Source: Microgenomates group bacterium (lineage in GTDB: Bacteria; Patescibacteriota; Microgenomatia; UBA10105; UBA927). Taken from it: a DNA stretch of 64,000 nt. Every line of letters begins with the position of its first letter. Position 1 is the stretch's first letter. Location: the NCBI GenBank assembly GCA_049287205.1, contig JBAQFJ010000001.1, positions 122,042 through 186,041 on the forward strand. The letters are read 5' to 3'. Below, piece by piece: positions 595 to 51,721 of this stretch. A program made the position numbers and the translations under genes. Below the pieces are notes generated by a model. The model searched no databases. It was given only the letters and a program-made list of their open reading frames with translations, and was not told the DNA's origin.

Positions 595-978
595 TCATTT
601 TTTTGGCATCGGAAGTGCGTCAATTGCTCGCGCAAGACCTTGTAAGGGAATATTTGCTGTATCTAAATCAATTTGGGATCCTTCCGGCCATGAATCGCTT
701 GCCATGCCAACGCGGAGTATGTGTGGAAATTTTTCTGCGATTGCTTGATTGATAAGCACTCCGTCTTTGTTTGTTTTGTCTCTACTATCAAAATTTACAT
801 CAAGACCTGCAACAACAACACCCTTTTCGATAAATTGGTTCATAGCTTGCAACGCCTCATCTATATTTGCTGCAGTGAGGACAACTTTATGCCCTCCACG
901 TTCAAGGAAAAATTTTTTTTCTTCCATGCGTTCAGGACGGTCGTCGGCAAGAAATATTGGTATGCTTTCAGGACTCAT
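595..978 (-). CDS. CheY-like receiver-domain protein (single domain), putative
   Basis: 127 aa; IFLADDRPE ... VVAGLDVNF ... GMASDS pattern resembles the acidic pocket, phospho-Asp and Ser/Thr of receiver domains. Weak. Confidence 0.4.
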   Translation of the reverse strand: MSPESIPIFLADDRPERMEEKKFFLERGGHKVVLTAANIDEALQAMNQFIEKGVVVAGLDVNFDSRDKTNKDGVLINQAIAEKFPHILRVGMASDSWPEGSQIDLDTANIPLQGLARAIDALPMPKK

Positions 979-1094
979 ACATGCATATATTGATTTTTTA
1001 TATTGTCATATCGTACTTGAATACCGCATTTCTGCATAGAGGGGAATTTCTCTTCTTGCAGGTTTTTCTTGTTTCCTTAATACTTATATATACT

Positions 1095-1736
1095 ATGGAA
1101 ATCATTCCCGGTATCTTAGAGACAGATGTCAAAGAAATTGAACGGAAAATAACACTTGTTGCGCCGTACGTGGAGACGGTTCAAATTGATATTGGCGACA
1201 ATACGATTTTTCCCTGTGACACGGTACATGATATGGCGATCCTCACGCCAATCATCGAAAAATTTACCAAAACCGGAACGAAATTTGAAGTGCATCTGAT
1301 GGTTGCTGATCCTATTTCGTATTTAAAACCGTTGGCTGATGCAGGCGTATCGCGGATAATTGCGCATGTCGAATGTCATGCTCCACGGGAATTTTTAGCA
1401 GAGGCGCGGACGCACGAAATGGAAGTGGGGCTCGCACTTGATGTGGAGTCGGATTTTGACCTTATTGAACCATACTTAGAAGAAGTGGATTTTGTTTTGG
1501 TTATGACGATTGAAACAGGTGCAAGCGGACAGGAATTTGAATCAAACGCAATGGAAACCATAAAAACAATTCACCGCAATTTGCCGGATTTGCCGATTGA
1601 AGTAGACGGCGGCATGACTCCTGATACGGCAAAAATTGTGCAAGAAGCAGGAGTGACACGGATTGTTACGACAAGCTTTATATTTAAAAGTGAACAGGAT
1701 ATTCCTTCAGCAATAGAATCGCTTCAAAATGCGTAA
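1095..1736 (+). CDS. rpe: ribulose-phosphate 3-epimerase
   Basis: ORF 957..1736; the conserved start MEIIPGILETD is at 1095. HLMVADP and EVDGG motifs of Rpe. Confidence 0.85.
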   Translation: MEIIPGILETDVKEIERKITLVAPYVETVQIDIGDNTIFPCDTVHDMAILTPIIEKFTKTGTKFEVHLMVADPISYLKPLADAGVSRIIAHVECHAPREFLAEARTHEMEVGLALDVESDFDLIEPYLEEVDFVLVMTIETGASGQEFESNAMETIKTIHRNLPDLPIEVDGGMTPDTAKIVQEAGVTRIVTTSFIFKSEQDIPSAIESLQNA

Positions 1737-1770
1737 GAGATAACAGGAAAATTTCTTCTTTGTTATACTT

Positions 1771-3639
1771 ATGATAGTTATGTTAGTTCCTGCTTTAAAA
1801 AAATTATGTACGCGTCTTCGTTATGATATTTTGACGATGACAACGACTGCCGGTAGCGGTCATCCGACCTCATCACTTTCTGCAGTGGAGTTAATGGCGA
1901 CACTGTATTTTAAATATCTCAGGCTTGATACAAAAAACCCAGATGCATATACGAATGACCGTGTTATTTTTTCCAAAGGACACGCATCACCATTGCTCTA
2001 CGCGCTGTTTCATGTTGCAGGATGTATTTCTGACAAAGAACTTGGCAACTATCGTCAATTTGGAAGCACTCTTGAAGGGCATCCTACGCCGCGATTTCTA
2101 TACGCAGACATTGCAACGGGATCACTCGGTCAAGGGCTTTCTGTGGGACTTGGTGAGGCCATAGCTGGTGCACCGCATGTGTTTGTTTTATTGGGTGATG
2201 GGGAATTGTCAGAAGGAGCTGTATGGGAAGCGGTGATGGCGGCAGGATTTCATAAAACGAATAATTTAATCGCACTTGTTGATGTAAATGCGCTCGAACA
2301 ATCGGGAAGTACGATGGAAGCGTGGGATACTGAGGTTTACAGAAAACGGTTTGAAAGCTTTGGGTGGGCAACGCTTGTGGTTGATGGGCATGACCTGAAA
2401 ATTTTGGATACGGCGTATCAAAAGGCGCTCGACTATCGTGGCGGCCCGACGGTAATCTTAGCAAAAACCAAAAAGGGAAATGGTATTTCATTTTTGGAAA
2501 ATAAACACGGATGGCATGGAAAAGTGCTTTCCAAAGAACAATTACATACCGCATTGCTTGAACTTGGGGATATAGATACATCATTTGAAGGCATTATCAA
2601 AAAACCAGATGTTTCTCATGAGCAACAGACATCTGCCTCTATGCGGGTTCAAAAAAATAGTACGTATGAAAAAGCGACGACCACAAGAGAGGGATTTGGG
2701 AAAGCAATAGTGCGGCTTGGAGTGGTAAATAGACAGATAATGGTTCTTGACGGTGATCTGGAAAAATCCACGTATACGCATTTGTTTCATGAAGCACTGC
2801 CACATCAATTTTTTGAAGGTCACATTGCAGAACAACTCATTGCAGGCATTGCATCTGGCATGTCTATTTGCGGGATGTATCCTGTCATTTCTTCGTATGG
2901 AAGTTTTTTAACCCGTGCAATCGATCAATTCAGAATGGCTGCAGTATCAGGAATACCCATGATGGTAAATGGATCGCACGGTGGGGTTTCTGTGGGTGCA
3001 GACGGTGTGTCTCAAATGGGGCTTGAAGATATCGCGTTGTTTCGTGCTCTGCCAAATTCCATTGTTATGAGTCCTGCAGATGCAGTGGCCGCAGAAAAAT
3101 TAACAGAACTCATATATGGTTATTCGGGAATTGCATATATCAGGACAACCCGGCCAAGTGTGCCTATTTTGTATGATGAAACAATGGAATTTATAATAGG
3201 CGGAAGTGTCACACACAAAGAACAGGGCTCCACTACGCCAAAGGCTGCGCGGAGTGAAAAAAAACTTGTGACCATTATTGCAACAGGAGTGACGGTGCAT
3301 GAAGCGCTGAAAGCGCAAAAAGAATTAGAAGACAGCGGCGTTCCAACGCGTGTGATTGATTGCTACAGTATTAAACCTGTTGATGCGACGGCAATTCGAA
3401 ACGCCGCAGCAGTTTCGAAACAATTGATTATTGTTGAAGACCACTATCCTGAAGGAGGGTTAGGCGAGGCAGTATTTACCGCACTTTCAGGCACAAATCT
3501 GGAGAGGGTCATACCCTCTCTTCAGATGAACATTACACATTTGGCGGTATACAAGCCGCCAATGTCAGGATCTGCAGAAGAATTGCTTCGATACGAAGAG
3601 ATTGATGCGACGGCAATAATTAGGACTGCGGTTGTATAA
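1771..3639 (+). CDS. tkt: transketolase (N- and C-terminal halves fused)
   Basis: 622 aa; TPP-binding N-terminus (TAGSGHPTSSLSAVELMATLYF, GDGELSEGAVWEA) plus pyrimidine-binding/C-terminal domains. Confidence 0.9.
   Translation: MIVMLVPALKKLCTRLRYDILTMTTTAGSGHPTSSLSAVELMATLYFKYLRLDTKNPDAYTNDRVIFSKGHASPLLYALFHVAGCISDKELGNYRQFGSTLEGHPTPRFLYADIATGSLGQGLSVGLGEAIAGAPHVFVLLGDGELSEGAVWEAVMAAGFHKTNNLIALVDVNALEQSGSTMEAWDTEVYRKRFESFGWATLVVDGHDLKILDTAYQKALDYRGGPTVILAKTKKGNGISFLENKHGWHGKVLSKEQLHTALLELGDIDTSFEGIIKKPDVSHEQQTSASMRVQKNSTYEKATTTREGFGKAIVRLGVVNRQIMVLDGDLEKSTYTHLFHEALPHQFFEGHIAEQLIAGIASGMSICGMYPVISSYGSFLTRAIDQFRMAAVSGIPMMVNGSHGGVSVGADGVSQMGLEDIALFRALPNSIVMSPADAVAAEKLTELIYGYSGIAYIRTTRPSVPILYDETMEFIIGGSVTHKEQGSTTPKAARSEKKLVTIIATGVTVHEALKAQKELEDSGVPTRVIDCYSIKPVDATAIRNAAAVSKQLIIVEDHYPEGGLGEAVFTALSGTNLERVIPSLQMNITHLAVYKPPMSGSAEELLRYEEIDATAIIRTAVV
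3502..3520. repeat. palindromic element, copy 2 (inside tkt coding sequence)
   Basis: GAGAGGGT-CAT-ACCCTCTC, perfect 8-bp stem; encodes LERVIPSL. Confidence 0.7.
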
Positions 3640-3650
3640 TACGGGTACGT

Positions 3651-3950
3651 ATGAGAAGACCAGAAACAGCTTCTCGACCGTCTTCTTTACCTCTTCAAAG
3701 ACCCGAGGCATTAAATCCATATCAGGAAGTTATGCGATATGTTGGTCAAGGGGGAACAGATATCGCTGAATCTTTGAGTGGAGGAATAACGATTACAGAG
3801 CATAGACCTGATGGGGATATTGTCAGTGTTGTTGGCGAAATTGACGAGAATCTTCCCGTCAAACAATCTGAAGGTGTTTCGTTTAGTTCTTTATCCGAGA
3901 ATGCGCAAAAACTTTACTACCAGTTGAAAAAAGAAGGAAGAATTCCGTAA
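3651..3950 (+). CDS. hypothetical small protein
   Basis: 99 aa ORF between tkt and the PPAT gene; no recognisable motif. Confidence 0.3.
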   Translation: MRRPETASRPSSLPLQRPEALNPYQEVMRYVGQGGTDIAESLSGGITITEHRPDGDIVSVVGEIDENLPVKQSEGVSFSSLSENAQKLYYQLKKEGRIP

Positions 3951-3994
3951 TGATGCTCTTTTCCGGTGTTTCAAAAGGTATATAATGAACGCTT

Positions 3995-4999
3995 ATGTAT
4001 ACTCATGCAGTGTGTGGCGGAACATTCGATCATTTTCATAGCGGCCACGTTGCACTTCTTACAGAGGCGTTTCATATTGCGACGCACGTGACCATTGGAC
4101 TTACTACTGACAAGTATGTTTCACACTATAAATATGATGAGGAAAATATATCCGGAGTTGCATGTGCTTCTTGTTCTTCCACAATTCAATCATATGGCAA
4201 GCGGAAACAACACCTAGAAGCATGGCTTCAGACCCAGGGATTTGCAGGTCGTGTTACCATCGTGCCTATTGATGATGCATATGGGCCGACAGTGAAGAAA
4301 AATACTGCGTCACAAGCAATGGATGTGCTTGTTGCTTCTGATGATACGAATGGTGGCGCAATAATGATTAATGAAAAAAGAAAAGCTGTTGGATTATCTG
4401 TTCTTCCTATTCATACGATTCATATGCTCCTTGCCGAGGATACAAAACCTATTTCTGCAACTCGTATCAGGAATCAGGAAATTGATGAAAAAGGAACACT
4501 TGTGATGCCTCATGCGATGAGAGGGGAACTTGCAGAACCATTTGGAACAGTGTTAAAAGATGGAAATACAGAATCCATTATTCGCGGTGATCATGAGGCG
4601 ATCATTATTTCTGTCGGAGACAAAACGACAAAACGGTTGGTAGAAAATGGTCTCGTACCTACGCTTGTTATTATTGACATGCAAGTAGAGCGTCAGCCGT
4701 ATGTTTGGGAAAAAGAGTTATGGGACAAACTGCCAAAAAAACAGCAGGAATTTGTGAGCGGTCCCGGATATATCAGCGCATCTGTTGTTGACGCGCTTGC
4801 CATATGGGCAAAAAAACCGACTCCTGTGAAGTTTGTGATTGATGGGGAAGAAGATTTGTTGGTCTTACCGGTTATTTGTCAGGCGCCAACCGATGCCGTT
4901 GTTTATTATGGTCAGCCTGGAGTTGGTATGGTGCGGGTTGTGGTGACAGAAGCAACTAAAAAACGCGCCGCCGCATTTTTACGGCAATTTACTTCGTAA
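3995..4999 (+). CDS. fused archaeal-type phosphopantetheine adenylyltransferase / DUF359 (GTP-dependent dephospho-CoA kinase-like) protein
   Basis: N-terminus: CGGTFDHFHSGH (HxGH) and ISATRIR (ISxTxIR) of cytidylyltransferase-like PPAT. C-terminal ~165 aa with VGDKTT..L..G..P.LVIID, EDLLVLPVI, YYGQPGVGMV recalled as DUF359/archaeal DPCK motifs. Confidence 0.6.
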   Translation: MYTHAVCGGTFDHFHSGHVALLTEAFHIATHVTIGLTTDKYVSHYKYDEENISGVACASCSSTIQSYGKRKQHLEAWLQTQGFAGRVTIVPIDDAYGPTVKKNTASQAMDVLVASDDTNGGAIMINEKRKAVGLSVLPIHTIHMLLAEDTKPISATRIRNQEIDEKGTLVMPHAMRGELAEPFGTVLKDGNTESIIRGDHEAIIISVGDKTTKRLVENGLVPTLVIIDMQVERQPYVWEKELWDKLPKKQQEFVSGPGYISASVVDALAIWAKKPTPVKFVIDGEEDLLVLPVICQAPTDAVVYYGQPGVGMVRVVVTEATKKRAAAFLRQFTS

Positions 5000-5023
5000 G
5001 TTTTTCCAGTATATACTAAGAAC

Positions 5024-5875
5024 ATGGCCATGTATGTTCCAGACAGTAAAACGCAGCGTTGGGTGATTATTGCTCCTTCAAGAAGTGACAGACCAACGGT
5101 TGCGCAAAAACCTTCCGCATATCATGTGTGCCCATTTTGCGTAGGGAATGAAAAGGACACACCTCCGGAATTGTATCGTATTGGCACTGGGGAACCGAAT
5201 ACTCCCGGATGGGAAGTGCGTGTTGTCCCTAATAAATATACGATCACTGATATCCATGAAGTCATTATTCATTCTCCCAGTTGCACAGACGATGTGGATA
5301 CGTTGCCGGTTGTACAAGTACAAAAAATATTCACGGCGTATCGAGATCGATATCGTGCGCATGAATCAGACGGGCAAGTGCTTATTTTCTGCAATCACGG
5401 AGTAACAGCTGGCGCTAGTCTCAAACACCCTCATAGTCAGCTTGTTGTTATTCCCAATCAAATAAATCTCGATTCATTGACCATTGAACCATTTAAAAAT
5501 ATTGTTGAGGAGTCTGCGTTATATATCACGTATTGTCCTGATTTTTCTCAATGGCCATTTGAGACATGGATTGCGCCAAAAACAGCAGGGAAAAAATTTA
5601 GTGAAGTAACTGATAGTGAGCTTCCAGAGCTTGCATCTGTTGTGAGTAGAGCCTTACACAAGGCAAGTAGCGTATTAAAAAGTCATGAGCTACGGTTTAA
5701 ACAGGCAAATGAGCCATTCGTGTTTAATTATTATATTTACCATGGAAAAGACTGGTTTATCCGTATTATTCCGCGTTCTATTCACCGGGCGGGTTTTGAA
5801 CTTGGAACCGGATTGAACGTCAATGTCATCGATCCTGTTGATGCAGCAAAGATGTTACAGAAGGCTGTAGTGTAA
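5024..5875 (+). CDS. galactose-1-phosphate uridylyltransferase family (GalT-like HIT) protein
   Basis: 283 aa; CPFCVGNE zinc motif and KHPHSQL (HxHxQ) histidine-triad motif as in GalT. Confidence 0.7.
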   Translation: MAMYVPDSKTQRWVIIAPSRSDRPTVAQKPSAYHVCPFCVGNEKDTPPELYRIGTGEPNTPGWEVRVVPNKYTITDIHEVIIHSPSCTDDVDTLPVVQVQKIFTAYRDRYRAHESDGQVLIFCNHGVTAGASLKHPHSQLVVIPNQINLDSLTIEPFKNIVEESALYITYCPDFSQWPFETWIAPKTAGKKFSEVTDSELPELASVVSRALHKASSVLKSHELRFKQANEPFVFNYYIYHGKDWFIRIIPRSIHRAGFELGTGLNVNVIDPVDAAKMLQKAVV

Positions 5876-7257: not shown

Positions 7258-7333
7258 AGTATATTCCTTTCACACCCTCCGGGTGTCGTCACTCGTACGT
7301 TTTTTCTCTATGAATCGAAAAAACTACGAATTA

Positions 7334-7361
7334 ACAAAAAAAACTCCCGCTTCAAGCGAGA
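7334..7361 (-). terminator. hairpin + U-run in the rplA-rplJ intergenic leader (attenuator/terminator)
   Basis: Minus strand: ctctcgcttgaagcgggag hairpin followed by a run of 9 T; lies in the L10 leader. Confidence 0.5.
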
Positions 7362-7466
7362 GAATGATGCATCAGCTGTGTGACGCATATGTTTTCCCTC
7401 GGTAGGATTTATGGATTTCTCCGCCTACTGTCTCTAGGACGATGGTTATTTATACCATTTCGAGCG

Positions 7467-20411: not shown

Positions 20412-21350
20412 ATGAAAAACATTTTGGTCACAGGTGCATTCGGACAAATTGGCAGTGAACTTGTGCCGGCGCTGCAGAAGAAATTTGGTGAGACACATGT
20501 TGTTGCGATAGGACACCACAATATCCCAAAAAATTTCAAAGGGATTGTGGAAATTGCGGAAATTGGCGAGGGAGAAAAATTGGAAGCAATCATCAAAAAA
20601 TATTCTATCGATACGGTCTATCATCTTGTCTCACTGCTTTCCGCCAAAGGGGAAGTGGATCCTTCTTTGACGTGGCAGGTGAATATGGGTGGACTGAAAA
20701 TAATTTTGGATTTGGCGGTGACATATAAATTGCAGGTATTCTGGCCAAGTTCTATTGCTACATTTGGTCCGACTACGCCACGAGTGGAGACTCCACAACG
20801 AACAGTGTTGGAGCCGACAACCATGTACGGTGTTACCAAAGTTGCAGGAGAATTGTTGGTTTCGTATTATCATAAAAAATTTGGACTTGATATTCGGTCT
20901 ATCCGCTATCCGGGACTCATCAGTTGGAAGACGCCGCCTGGGGGTGGAACAACAGATTATGCGGTTGCCATTTTTTACGAAGGATTAAAACAGGGAAAGT
21001 ATGAATGTTTTGTTCGTCCTGATACGACGCTTCCAATGATGTACATGGATGATGCAGTTCGTGGAACAATGGAACTTATGGAGGCAGACCCAACGAAACT
21101 TACTGTGACGACGAGTTACAATTTTTCTGCAATCAGTTTTACAGCGGAAGAGTTAGCAGCAGAAATTAATAAATATATAAAAGTTGATGTAACCTATGCA
21201 CCTGATGCACGTCAGGCAATTGCAGATAGTTGGCCGCAGTCCATTGACGATACGGCAGCGCGGAACGATTGGGGATGGAAACATGAATATACACTTGAAA
21301 AAATGACAACCGTGATGATAGAAGCATTACAAAAGAAAGGAAACCTATGA
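20412..21350 (+). CDS. tdh: L-threonine 3-dehydrogenase (NAD-dependent epimerase/dehydratase family, short-chain type)
   Basis: 312 aa; [15 protein letters not shown] Rossmann N-terminus, YGVTK catalytic YxxxK. Sits next to kbl as in SDR-type Tdh operons. Confidence 0.7.
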
Positions 21351-22558
21351 ACGATCCATTACAACCGTTTTATGATCAGATTGAGACGATGAAAGAGAAG
21401 GGATTGTATACAAATATTCGCACCGTTGAATCATCACAGGGTGCATGGCTCACAGTTGGCGGCAAAAAAGTATTGAATTTTTGTTCCAATAATTATCTTG
21501 GTCTTGCAGGTAATGCAGATCTCGGTAAAGCTGCGATTGCTGCCATTAAAACATATGGTGTTGGGCCGGGAGCGGTTCGTGTGCTTTCCGGAACGAATAT
21601 CTTGCATCTTGAACTGGAAACCCTGATTGCAAAATTTAAACGATGCGAAGCTGCCATCGTTGTACAGAGTGGATTTATCGCCAACATCATTGCGATTCAA
21701 TCCCTCATGGGGAAAGAAGATGTCGTGATTTCTGATGAACTCAATCACGCATCCATCATTGATGCGGTAAAAATTGCACAGATTGGAAATAAATTTATTT
21801 ACAAGCATAATGACATGCAGGATTTGGAACTAAAACTGAAAGAAGTCCAGCAGCTTGCGGAAACCCCACGTACGGATGGGTCGAAACGACTTGTTTTGAT
21901 CGTGACGGACGGTGTGTTTTCGATGGATGGAGACATTGCAAAACTTCCAGAAATTGTGCACCTTGCGAAAAAATATGGTGCAATCACTATGACCGATGAT
22001 GCACATGGCGAAGGGGTACTCGGAAGTCATGGACGGGGAATTGTGGATCATTTTAATCTCCACGGACAAGTAGATATTGAAGTAGGGACGCTTTCAAAGG
22101 CACTTGGCGTGGTTGGTGGAGTGATTACCGGCAAAAAAGAACTGATTGAATGGTATCGGCAAAAAGGACGACCATTCGCATTTTCCACAGGGCTGACTAT
22201 TCCTGATACCGCAGCACTGATTGCTTGTATCACGATGCTTATGAAATCAGATGTCTTAGTCAAAAAAGTGTGGGCAAATGGTGACTATTTAAAAAAGGAA
22301 TTTACAAAGCTTGGATTTAATACGGGCGTGTCAGAAACGCCGATTACACCCGTAATGATCGGTGATGAAAATCTTGCCAAGACGTTCAGCGCTAAGCTTT
22401 TTGAACACAATGTGTTTGCAACACCAATTAAGTTCCCGATGGTGGCACTTGGGAAGGCGCGGATTCGCGTTATGCCATCAGCTAGCCATACAAAAAAAGA
22501 TTTGGATTTCGGAATTGCCGCATTTGAAACAGTTGGGAAAGAACTCGGCATTATCTAG
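21347..22558 (+). CDS. kbl: 2-amino-3-ketobutyrate CoA ligase (glycine C-acetyltransferase)
   Basis: 403 aa PLP enzyme of the AONS family; ATGA overlap with tdh. Confidence 0.8.
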
Positions 22559-24253: not shown

Positions 24254-24928
24254 ATGCAAATACAAAAATTGTTTGGGGTTGAACAGGCACGCGATGCAAC
24301 AGGATTTGTTGTGGTTATCGATGTGTTTCGTGCAGCATCAACTGCCGCGTGTGCGCTCGCACAGGGTGCAAAAGAAATTATTCCCGTCGCAACAAAAGAA
24401 GACGCATTTTTGTATAGAGAAACGCATCTGGATACTCTGATTATGGGAGAAGACAAAGGAATAATGATTCCAGGATTCGATTTCGGTAACTCGCCGTATC
24501 TTCTTGCAAAAGAAGATTTGATTGGAAAAACGATGATTCATCGGTCAACGCAGGGAACACAAGGACTTGTTCGTGCTATTCATGCATCACCACTTGTGTT
24601 TGGAAGTTTTGTTATAGCACAGGCAATCGTTTCATATATTCGTGCTGTTGCCCCGTTAACGGTGACATTTGTTGCGCTCGGTGGTGAACAATTCGAAGAT
24701 GGCATATTTGCCACGTATATGGAAGATCTTCTTCAGGGACGTAACCCAACCAAACATTCTGTGGAAAAACAAATTCAAGGAAGTATTCATGCAAAACGAT
24801 TTTTTGATCCAATGAAACCAGATTTTCCGAAAGAAGATTATTATTTTTGTTTGGATATAAACAAATTTCCGTTTGTCGTTGAGGCCGTTCGAACACCATA
24901 TCTTCATCTAGTGAAGAAAACTATTTGA
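24254..24928 (+). CDS. 2-phosphosulfolactate phosphatase (ComB) family protein
   Basis: 224 aa; GFVVVIDVFRAASTAACALAQGAKEIIPV resembles the ComB N-terminal signature. Confidence 0.5.
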   Translation: MQIQKLFGVEQARDATGFVVVIDVFRAASTAACALAQGAKEIIPVATKEDAFLYRETHLDTLIMGEDKGIMIPGFDFGNSPYLLAKEDLIGKTMIHRSTQGTQGLVRAIHASPLVFGSFVIAQAIVSYIRAVAPLTVTFVALGGEQFEDGIFATYMEDLLQGRNPTKHSVEKQIQGSIHAKRFFDPMKPDFPKEDYYFCLDINKFPFVVEAVRTPYLHLVKKTI

Positions 24929-30080: not shown

Positions 30081-30884
30081 TTAGCCGAGAGAAAAATGGA
30101 ACAGCGACTGTGACAGCAACCAGATGCCTTCAGATAAAATCAGGACTGCAATGAGTGTCTGCAGCAATTTTACATTGAGATATTTTGTGAGTGTTGGTCC
30201 AACGATTCCTCCAAAAAATGCTCCGATCGTTAAATTGATCAGGAGGTCGTAGGAAATGACTTTTTTGGATAGAAGATAAATAATAAATCCGGTAATGCAG
30301 ATAGGCACTTCGGAGAGCGTTGTGGAACCGATTGATTTTTTTGCATGGTTGCCGGAAAGCACTTGTCCACCTGTCATAAGCGGGCCAAACCCGCCGCCGG
30401 AAATACCTTTGTTAAATGCAGATATGATGGCAAGTCCGGTTATTTTTTTCCAAGAAAAATTAAACCGGCGTTTTAACAGAAGCACAACTCCTATAATGGT
30501 GACTAATACGCCAATATAGAGTTTTAAGATTTCTTTTGGAAGTTTGACTCCCAGTACCGCTCCGACAACGGTGGCTCCGACCCCCAAGAATCCCACAAGG
30601 AGAGAGATGCGGAGGTCTTTTGAAATAGAGAGATGTTTTTTCCCGTCCTCACCACCAACTACCAGAGATGGAAATAAATCCGCAGTTTTATATTTATTAT
30701 GAAAAAATGCGGCCATGAATCCGCCGACTGCCTGGGAAATTAAAATTGATGGCACCACGAGATTGGAAGAGAATCCAAAAATGATAAGTAGCGGCGAAAG
30801 GATTGTCCCGTATCCCATGCCAAGTCCCGAATCAATGACTTCCATAATGAATGCGAGCACGATAAGAAACAACGCATTTTCCAT
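30081..30884 (-). CDS. TauE/SafE (TSUP, DUF81) family membrane transporter
   Basis: 267 aa, 7-8 TM, Gly-rich repeats typical of sulfite/sulfonate exporter-type TSUP proteins; immediately downstream of sat/cysC. Confidence 0.6.
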   Translation of the reverse strand: MENALFLIVLAFIMEVIDSGLGMGYGTILSPLLIIFGFSSNLVVPSILISQAVGGFMAAFFHNKYKTADLFPSLVVGGEDGKKHLSISKDLRISLLVGFLGVGATVVGAVLGVKLPKEILKLYIGVLVTIIGVVLLLKRRFNFSWKKITGLAIISAFNKGISGGGFGPLMTGGQVLSGNHAKKSIGSTTLSEVPICITGFIIYLLSKKVISYDLLINLTIGAFFGGIVGPTLTKYLNVKLLQTLIAVLILSEGIWLLSQSLFHFSLG

Positions 30885-30888
30885 ATAT

Positions 30889-32694
<1,806 letters not shown>

Positions 32695-50895: not shown

Positions 50896-51022
50896 GAAAC
50901 GAGTATACAGATGAGGCGCCGGATCGTCACTGCATCACGGATATGCATCAGCGAGGCTATTTTTCGTTTTCTTGCGTTTCCGTGTCTGTTTGTGTTTAAA
51001 TGTTGTACAGAGTACAACGACT

Positions 51023-51721
51023 ATGGCACACGAGAATACATTTGTCATCTCACTGGGCGGCGCGCTGGTAATACCAAATGAGCGGATTGATACACAGTTT
51101 TTATCCGCGTTTAACGCGTTTATCCGAAAACAAGTCTCCGAAAAAAATCGGAGATTTTTTATAACAGTCGGAGGCGGGGCAGTCATGCGACAATACCGCG
51201 ACGTGGCTAAAGAGGTGCACGGAAATATAACGGAAGCTGATCTTGATTGGTTGGGTATTCATGCGACGAGACTGAATGCGCAGCTGGTTCGAGCAATATT
51301 TAAAGATATTGCTAACCCTCGGCTTATCAAGCATTACGAAATTATTCTAAAAACCACGCAGTCTGTTACGATTGCATCTGGTTGGAAACCAGGCTGGAGC
51401 ATAGATTATTGCGCAGTCACGTTGTGTCAGGACTACGGTATAAAACATATAATCAATATGACAACTAGTGATATGGTATATACGAAAGATTCGAAAACAG
51501 GTACAGATGCAAAACCAACGGATACCATGACGTGGAAAAACTATTGTGCGCTTGCAGGAGACACATGGACGCCAGGACTCACCTTACCGTTTGATCCGAT
51601 TGCAGCGCGACTTGCGGGTGAGATGGATTTGACTGTAAAAATTCTTAATGGAAAAGACTTGGATAATTTGGAGCGGGCGCTTGATAACAAGTCGTTTGTA
51701 GGAACGACGATTGTGAATTGA
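51023..51721 (+). CDS. pyrH: amino-acid-kinase family protein, archaeal-type UMP kinase-like
   Basis: ORF 50972..51721; start MAHENTFVISLGGALV at 51023. AAK-fold N-terminus ISLGG. Confidence 0.5.
   Translation: MAHENTFVISLGGALVIPNERIDTQFLSAFNAFIRKQVSEKNRRFFITVGGGAVMRQYRDVAKEVHGNITEADLDWLGIHATRLNAQLVRAIFKDIANPRLIKHYEIILKTTQSVTIASGWKPGWSIDYCAVTLCQDYGIKHIINMTTSDMVYTKDSKTGTDAKPTDTMTWKNYCALAGDTWTPGLTLPFDPIAARLAGEMDLTVKILNGKDLDNLERALDNKSFVGTTIVN

Follow-up and report, generated by a model that had tools for sequence, protein, structure and literature searches.

Fusions of pantetheine-phosphate adenylyltransferase (PPAT) with a domain of arCOG04076, found in uncultured marine group II/III (MGII/III) Euryarchaeota (e.g. 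AIF21550.1), led to the archaeal dephospho-CoA kinase (DPCK) (Shimosaka, Makarova, Koonin & Atomi 2019, PMC6650551). This archaeal architecture, with PPAT at the N terminus and DPCK at the C terminus, was the basis for predicting the kinase activity, which was later proven biochemically and genetically for TK1697 of Thermococcus kodakarensis, the sole characterised homologue with this domain (DUF359), whose phosphate donor is GTP (PMC6650551). The PSI-BLAST search of that study retrieved arCOG04076 members only, and bacteria are unmentioned in it (PMC6650551). In our search of the literature, no paper describing a PPAT-DUF359 fusion in bacteria, including the candidate phyla radiation (CPR), was found. 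In this study, we analysed a stretch of 64,000 nucleotides (hereafter the window) from a Microgenomates group bacterium, a CPR/Patescibacteria host (assembly GCA_049287205.1, contig JBAQFJ010000001.1, positions 122,042 to 186,041); the window represents ~6% of a small genome of ~1.02 Mb (contig of 1,020,031 bp). An open reading frame (ORF) at 3995..4999 on its forward strand, running from ATG to stop (334 amino acids and a stop codon), encodes a fusion protein identical in sequence to GenBank MFZ2024736.1, the public name of which is 'MAG: pantetheine-phosphate adenylyltransferase [Microgenomates group bacterium]' (MAG, metagenome-assembled genome). Judging from its sequence and predicted fold, this protein is most likely a bifunctional coenzyme A (CoA) synthase made of archaeal-type parts, which would convert 4'-phosphopantetheine to dephospho-CoA and then to CoA.

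Domains, catalytic residues and predicted fold

The two domains abut with a junction gap of 0 residues, i.e. with no linker, and carry the following features.

3995..4504, + strand: N-terminal PPAT domain (residues 1-170) of archaeal/eukaryotic type, with cytidylyltransferase-like fold (PF01467, NF001985, 3do8)
4016..4048, + strand: GGTFDHFHSGH (residues 8-18), the (H/T)xGH nucleotide-binding signature of the nucleotidyltransferase superfamily
4136..4177, + strand: lineage-variable insertion of the PPAT domain (residues 48-61), predicted to be disordered (predicted local distance difference test, pLDDT, <50), with gapped and variable alignment columns
4451..4471, + strand: ISATRIR (residues 153-159), the second nucleotidyltransferase motif (ISSTRIR type)
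4505..4996, + strand: C-terminal DUF359/arCOG04076 dephospho-CoA kinase domain (residues 171-334; PF04019, NF041125, 8jvc)
4619..4621, + strand: Asp209, corresponding to Asp48 of TK1697 by pairwise alignment; invariant
4676..4678, + strand: Asp228, corresponding to Asp67 of TK1697 by pairwise alignment; invariant
4853..4855, + strand: Asp287 of the GEED motif, corresponding to Asp125 of TK1697 by pairwise alignment; invariant

An earlier note on this DNA had claimed an archaeal-type PPAT and a DUF359 domain on a single polypeptide, and the family models, the catalytic residues and the predicted fold all agree with this claim. Both Pfam families that it had named were found above their cut-offs, PF01467 on residues 6-160 (40.7 bits, cut-off 21, E=3.3e-10) and PF04019/DUF359 on residues 211-332 (94.8 bits, cut-off 25, E=3.8e-27), the latter over model positions 1-125 of 126; thus, the C-terminal half does match DUF359/DPCK models as had been supposed. 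Among the NCBIfam models, NF001985 (archaeal-type PPAT) is the sole subfamily model above its cut-off for the PPAT half (136 bits vs 104), with residues 3-170 aligned to model positions 5-153 of 157, and the next non-PPAT full-length models reach no more than 24 bits. NF002250 matches residues 5-170 with 98.7 bits, below its cut-off of 489. The bacterial CoaD equivalog TIGR01510 scores 19.4 bits vs a cut-off of 103.3, and the P-loop CoaE domain (PF01121) gave no Pfam match at E<=1 in the fusion protein. In the C-terminal half, residues 171-331 align to positions 5-168 of 176 of NF041125, the model of the Thermococcales GTP-dependent DPCK. Sequence search of the PDB gave the same division, with residues 173-330 matched by 8jvc, the T. 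kodakarensis GTP-dependent DPCK (E=1e-14), and residues 6-169 by 3do8, the A. fulgidus PPAT (E=1.1e-12).

Conservation was assessed in an alignment of 23 fused homologues with 33-66% identity to the window protein. All the motifs quoted in the earlier note are present in the protein: in addition to GGTFDHFHSGH and ISATRIR in the PPAT half, VGDKTT, GEEDLLVLP and YGQPGVG are located at residues 207-212, 284-292 and 305-311 of the DUF359 half, respectively. In the first of these motifs, G9, T10, F11, D12, H15, G17 and H18 are invariant among the homologues, and in ISATRIR the residues S154, R157 and R159 are each conserved in at least 90% of them. The DUF359 half retains D209, D228, G284, E285, D287 and Y305-G-Q-P308 without exception. 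As for the three aspartates of T. kodakarensis TK1697, the D48A and D67A mutations severely impair growth, and D125A does so partly (PMC6650551).

The AlphaFold2 model, built on the same alignment, has a mean pLDDT of 87.2, and residues 48-61 are its single disordered stretch. When the model was compared with the PDB using Foldseek, the top matches were the DPCK structures 8jvc and 8jvg, with template modelling (TM) scores of 0.77-0.79 (target-normalised; 0.78 for 8jvc) and E=1e-12 over 171 aligned columns. Next came the archaeal PPAT 3do8 (TM 0.77-0.84, E=2e-8), and bacterial CoaD structures followed with lower scores of ~0.5-0.66.

Distribution and origin of the fusion

The fusion had been described in the earlier note as unusual in a bacterial genome. 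This is true for bacteria at large, but not for the lineage of the host, since the architecture occurs widely across Patescibacteria, including Microgenomates, Levyibacteriota, Roizmanbacteria and Gottesmanbacteria. Both Pfam domains are present in >100 clusters at 90% identity, and the sources given for them include Gottesmanbacteria, Levyibacteriota and Patescibacteria. An exhaustive HMMER search of 1.84 billion representatives (50%-identity clusters) retrieved 3,324 matches at E<=1e-3. Long-term selection acts on the PPAT-DPCK architecture: at E<=1e-30 there are still 359 matching clusters, both halves are covered in nearly all of the 150 best matches, and the mean identity of the fusion within CPR is only 34-37%. 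The contigs of GTDB species genomes were scanned with the alignment profile of the fused homologues, a single-protein query having given no match. Full-length matches were obtained in Levyibacteriota, Roizmanbacteria, Microgenomates and Patescibacteria as well as in Poseidoniales/Thalassarchaeaceae archaea, from which five full-length fused genes were recovered (L018, L028, L030, L033 and L036). Most other archaea match one half only, and therefore the PPAT and DPCK genes are separate there.

Two loci labelled 'Gammaproteobacteria' (L001 and L003) might have pointed to an occurrence of the fusion outside CPR, but this reading was rejected because both are syntenic with the window. A locus labelled 'Vitreimonas' (L016, 43.5% GC) is likewise doubtful as a non-CPR fusion. 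The NCBI organism labels 'Gammaproteobacteria', 'Pseudomonadales', 'Vitreimonas' and 'Eisenbacteria' are doubtful among L001, L003, L014, L016, L032 and L079. The PPAT of L079 pairs with a Thermoplasmata sequence (L072) in a neighbour-joining (NJ) tree.

A triple-domain relative was observed in a Roizmanbacteria MAG (JANLIS010000055.1; L005:5494-6981), and also as P0221, a protein of 530 amino acids; another locus, L032:5506-7175, resembles a split copy of such a gene. In the triple-domain order, an N-terminal module with GRFQPFHKGH is followed by PPAT and then by DUF359 on one chain. The extra module best matches archaeal-type NMN adenylyltransferase (NMNAT), with ~110 bits for NF002243 vs a cut-off of 127 and ~100 bits for TIGR01527. 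From these matches, it is possible that the triple-domain protein is an NAD-plus-CoA finishing enzyme, and an NMNAT-like module on the same chain fits a role of the fusion in the last steps of cofactor assembly.

With regard to origin, the PPAT profile of the CPR fusions scores standalone PPATs of Bathyarchaeia, Thorarchaeota and Asgard archaea at 168-189 bits vs 92-114 bits for the fused halves of marine group II (MGII). Likewise, the CPR DPCK profile scores standalone Thaumarchaeota proteins at 120-126 bits vs 77-95 bits for the MGII fused halves. Over the full PPAT domain, the identity to standalone archaeal PPAT orthologues is 37-41%. We calculated 200 NJ bootstraps for each half, leaving out the truncated and triple-domain sequences L005 and L032; the domains are short, standalone DPCKs are few, and deep nodes are unresolved in these trees. 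The MGII fusions form a clade of their own in 98.5% (PPAT) and 96.5% (DPCK) of the bootstraps. A clade of all fusions, CPR and MGII together, appeared in 0% (PPAT) and 10% (DPCK), figures to be read in view of the short domains and sparse standalone DPCKs. The junctions differ as well: the window protein and its relatives at L001 and L003 have no linker, ~11 extra residues are present in Levyibacteriota, and a 'PW' linker is specific to MGII. As far as these sequence comparisons go, the CPR halves resemble standalone archaeal genes at least as closely as they do the fused halves of MGII. There is thus a hint that the CPR and MGII fusions arose independently, or else that they share a very old and fast-diverging history.

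Proposed function, genomic setting and rival explanations

In the mechanism that we propose, the N-terminal nucleotidyltransferase domain would bind ATP through HxGH and ISxTRIR and transfer AMP onto 4'-phosphopantetheine, giving dephospho-CoA and pyrophosphate. The abutting DUF359 domain, which is predicted to have a thiamine-pyrophosphokinase-like, non-P-loop fold, would then phosphorylate dephospho-CoA at its 3'-OH, by means of D209, D228 and D287 and with an NTP as donor, yielding CoA. We infer both reactions from homology. The fusion fixes the ratio of PPAT to DPCK at 1:1 and places two consecutive active sites on one chain. It is reasonable to speculate that this protein is the host's route to CoA, possibly its only route, and that it is fed by scavenged 4'-phosphopantetheine or pantetheine instead of by de novo synthesis. 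No member of the CoaD, CoaE, CoaBC or PanK families was found among the ~58 ORFs of the window, a negative that covers 64 kb only. KEGG-module surveys of Saccharibacteria, another CPR lineage, report the modules for CoA and pantothenate as missing (PMC11659515), and the suggested sole-route role and scavenged substrate are consistent with these gaps.

A need for CoA in this organism follows from the presence in its genome of a gene for a CoA-consuming enzyme, Kbl.

21347..22558, + strand: glycine C-acetyltransferase (Kbl), CoA-consuming (NF005394, 481 bits vs a cut-off of 460)
20412-21350, + strand: short-chain dehydrogenase/reductase (SDR)/epimerase-like gene, directly 5' of Kbl

The tdh and kbl genes are a known pairing, and the SDR gene is probably the threonine dehydrogenase partner of Kbl in a pair making acetyl-CoA and glycine. 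A Kbl homologue with 59-63% identity adjoins the fusion in four Levyibacteriota loci (L002:8635-9831, L004:3826-5013, L008:4762-5982 and L053:8324-9520). In 20 CPR-type loci, no conserved transporter or upstream CoA enzyme was found adjoining the fusion. Its recurrent neighbours, namely aminoacyl-tRNA-synthetase-like and GreA-like ORFs (assigned by eye), a Ham1-family protein, VanW, Kbl and, in Levyibacteriota only, an SBP_bac_1 solute-binding protein, look like housekeeping genes.

Several points weigh against the assignment as a bifunctional CoA synthase, or at least against its details. Identity to TK1697 is only ~31% over 151 aligned residues, and that to 3do8 is 22-23% in the fold alignment. 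The Thermococcales equivalog models NF041125 and NF041124, which are clade-specific, score 66.7 and 66.9 bits vs cut-offs of 300 and 290, respectively; by these scores, the fusion protein belongs to the family without being an equivalog of the Thermococcales DPCK and CoaD proteins. The predicted TM score (pTM) of the AlphaFold2 model is 0.62, which leaves the relative orientation of the domains uncertain, and therefore no statement on substrate channelling is possible. For the bacterial members, both activities are predictions from homologues. Finally, we infer the sole-route role and the salvage of the substrate from 6% of the genome together with general knowledge of CPR.

The gene is embedded in a co-directional run at 957..5875, the other members of which are listed below.

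957-1736, + strand: Rpe, which opens the run
1771-3639, + strand: transketolase, 5' of the 99-aa ORF
3651-3950, + strand: ORF of 99 amino acids with no Pfam or NCBIfam match, 11 nt from transketolase and 44 nt from the fusion, present in both the L081 and L082 assemblies
5024-5875, + strand: GalT/HIT-like gene (DUF4921/DUF4931-like, nucleotidyltransferase-type), directly 3' of the fusion, with weak Pfam/NCBIfam matches throughout

The spacing among transketolase, the 99-aa ORF, the fusion and the GalT-like gene is 11-44 nt. The fusion gene was recovered in assemblies of two independent read sets (L081 and L082) with identical neighbour order, i.e. transketolase, 99-aa ORF, fusion and GalT-like gene. 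The relatives L001 and L003 keep the order of Rpe, the fusion and the GalT-like gene, with GalT-like homologues of 58-60% identity at the same position (L001:7017-7892 and L003:1807-2688), and their ribosomal protein L10 is 59% identical to that of the window. Further downstream, an Rfam L10 leader (7328-7455) adjoins the genes for L7/L12, L10, L1 and L11, and the window also contains a gene for NusG. The host DNA of the window is bacterial, and its GC content of 38-45% is even throughout. A perfect TATAAT hexamer lies in 3970-3994, ending 9 nt 5' of the fusion ATG, with no obvious Shine-Dalgarno sequence, and TATACT boxes resembling it are also found 5' of the starts at 1771 and 5024. The TATAAT is given as an observation only, since a scan for promoter and terminator consensus sequences yielded site counts not above those of shuffled sequence.

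These surroundings bear on the idea that the gene is archaeal and entered a bacterial MAG through mis-binning or chimeric assembly. Although both halves are archaeal in affinity and some public MAG labels around the family are unreliable, the gene is flanked, on a single contig, by pentose-phosphate genes of bacterial type on one side and by the bacterial L7/L12-L10-L1-L11/NusG cluster with its L10 leader on the other. Archaeal contamination was thus rejected on the grounds of synteny in L001 and L003, even composition and assembly from two read sets, and such an artefact is hardly credible. Of more weight, albeit still unlikely, is the alternative that the fusion works but is redundant or specialised, a laterally acquired accessory to canonical CoaD and CoaE, perhaps even to a full pathway, encoded outside the window. 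The inspection covered no more than 64 kb of the ~1.02 Mb contig, and several Levyibacteriota loci contain near the fusion a second small cytidylyltransferase-like ORF which initially seemed CoaD-like. This ORF was, however, rejected as CoaD, because it is RfaE-domain-II-like (TIGR02199, 105.8 bits, below cut-off) and CoaD models are not among its matches. It encodes ~160 amino acids on the - strand ~4-5 kb 5' of the fusion in L002, L009, L010, L015 and L053 (and, as a partial copy, at the end of L004), where it belongs to a block conserved in Levyibacteriota that also includes VanW-like, SBP_bac_1 and GreA-like genes. The window lacks all four of the canonical families named above, and the conservation of the fusion across deeply diverged CPR lineages is the pattern of a core gene rather than that of a sporadic accessory.

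The other two alternatives concern the substrates of the individual domains. Thiamine pyrophosphokinases are distant relatives of DUF359 (PMC6650551), and with one family member characterised and ~31% identity to it, the C-terminal domain might keep the fold and act on another substrate, for example as a small-molecule kinase of thiamine-pyrophosphokinase-like or another kind; the protein would then not be a CoA synthase. We regard this as very unlikely, since the obligatory pairing with PPAT over hundreds of clusters argues for consecutive steps of one pathway, and since the domain aligns end to end with DPCK, has its three Asp residues, GEED and YGQP invariant, and finds its best fold match in a DPCK. 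About as improbable, if not slightly more so, is a different activity of the N-terminal domain, such as that of an NMNAT, an FAD synthetase or a sugar- or glycerol-phosphate cytidylyltransferase. PF01467 is indeed a broad superfamily, and weak matches to rfaE-II, TagD, NadD/NadM and RibF models were seen, but NF001985 alone exceeds its cut-off. The level of identity to standalone archaeal PPAT orthologues over the full domain also speaks against it, and the triple-fusion relatives add a separate NMNAT-like module beside the PPAT domain rather than replacing it. Taken together, a bifunctional CoA synthase is the assignment that we prefer.

Some other genes of the window deserve mention. The earlier note had remarked on an archaeal flavour of other enzymes in this stretch, a remark which holds in part, namely for the PyrH-like gene.

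50972-51721, + strand: UMP-kinase-like (PyrH-like) gene of archaeal type (TIGR02076 pyrH_arch, 156.4 bits, cut-off 158.05; bacterial type, 34.8 bits)

A fused ATP sulfurylase/APS kinase gene (PUA_2, ATP-sulfurylase and APS_kinase domains, 580 amino acids) adjoins a TauE/SafE sulfite exporter gene at 30081-32631 (- strand), and a gene of the ComB-like 2-phosphosulfolactate phosphatase family (24254-24928, + strand) lies ~5 kb from it; such a set of sulfur-activation and sulfonate genes is unexpected in a CPR genome. The ribosomal protein L1 ORF (7467-8363, - strand) encodes 298 amino acids with a Pfam L1 match in two stretches, which could be due to an insertion or to an over-extended TTG start. 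In a large cell-envelope glycosylation region at 32697-57405, several glycosyltransferases (GT1/GT2/GT4) are encoded together with a Wzx-like flippase and a radical-SAM/SPASM protein. Three large membrane proteins of this region, with 513, 708 and 704 amino acids, are of the Wzy_C (O-antigen ligase-like) kind, and the last of them has TPR repeats.

Significance and comparison with known systems

Since the fusion architecture has already been published for archaea and is common in the bacterial group of the host, our result is an annotation upgrade and not a discovery; it leaves current understanding in place and adds another lineage to an enzyme family and a fusion that were both known already. 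Modestly new are the breadth of an archaeal-type DPCK within a bacterial radiation, in which the DUF359 kinase is broadly established, the PPAT-only public annotation, and the hint of independent fusions. The NCBI annotation pipeline PGAP labels the fusion and its CPR relatives solely as 'pantetheine-phosphate adenylyltransferase', and therefore metabolic reconstructions of CPR will score the final CoA step as missing, although it is probably encoded on the same chain. Tentatively, and with rather more doubt than confidence, we propose for Microgenomates and allied CPR that the fusion is the only CoA-forming enzyme, replacing CoaD and CoaE, that it is fed by scavenged substrate, that it originated independently of MGII, and that it was later extended by an NMNAT-like module in some members. 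If this is true, the last step to CoA in a major bacterial radiation would be carried out by a non-P-loop kinase, possibly a GTP-dependent one, of a kind so far treated as archaea-specific. If the upstream CoA genes as well as CoaD and CoaE are absent genome-wide, the enzyme would mark the point of CoA dependence, on phosphopantetheine or pantetheine, and these two compounds would then suggest themselves as supplements of cultivation media.

Among known systems, the bacterial CoaD and CoaE catalyse the two reactions that are predicted for the fusion, and CoaD shares the nucleotidyltransferase superfold with it. In typical bacteria, however, they are encoded by separate genes, and the fusion protein fails the CoaD model TIGR01510 and is devoid of PF01121. 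The bifunctional PPAT/NTP phosphatase of Thermoplasmata type (NF002250) also combines an archaeal-type PPAT, which aligns with that of the fusion, with a second domain, but there the partner is an NTP phosphatase and not DUF359. Eukaryotic COASY likewise carries the last two CoA steps on one chain, with a PPAT domain of the archaeal/eukaryotic type, as in the fusion. Its second step is analogous, not homologous, to that of DUF359. The COASY kinase domain is of the P-loop CoaE type, which is unrelated to DUF359 (PMC6650551).

The T. kodakarensis proteins TK2128 (PPAT) and TK1697 (DPCK; 8jvc, 8jvf and 8jvg) are homologous to the two halves of the fusion, with the three Asp residues kept. Unlike the fusion, they are encoded by two separate genes; the identity is ~31%, and the GTP preference is a property of TK1697. 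The MGII/III fusions agree with the CPR protein in domain content and order, with PPAT followed by DUF359 on a single chain, and in the conserved motifs. They differ from the fusion described here in their archaeal hosts, as opposed to a CPR bacterium, in an identity of 25-28%, in forming a clade of their own, and in their 'PW...' linker.

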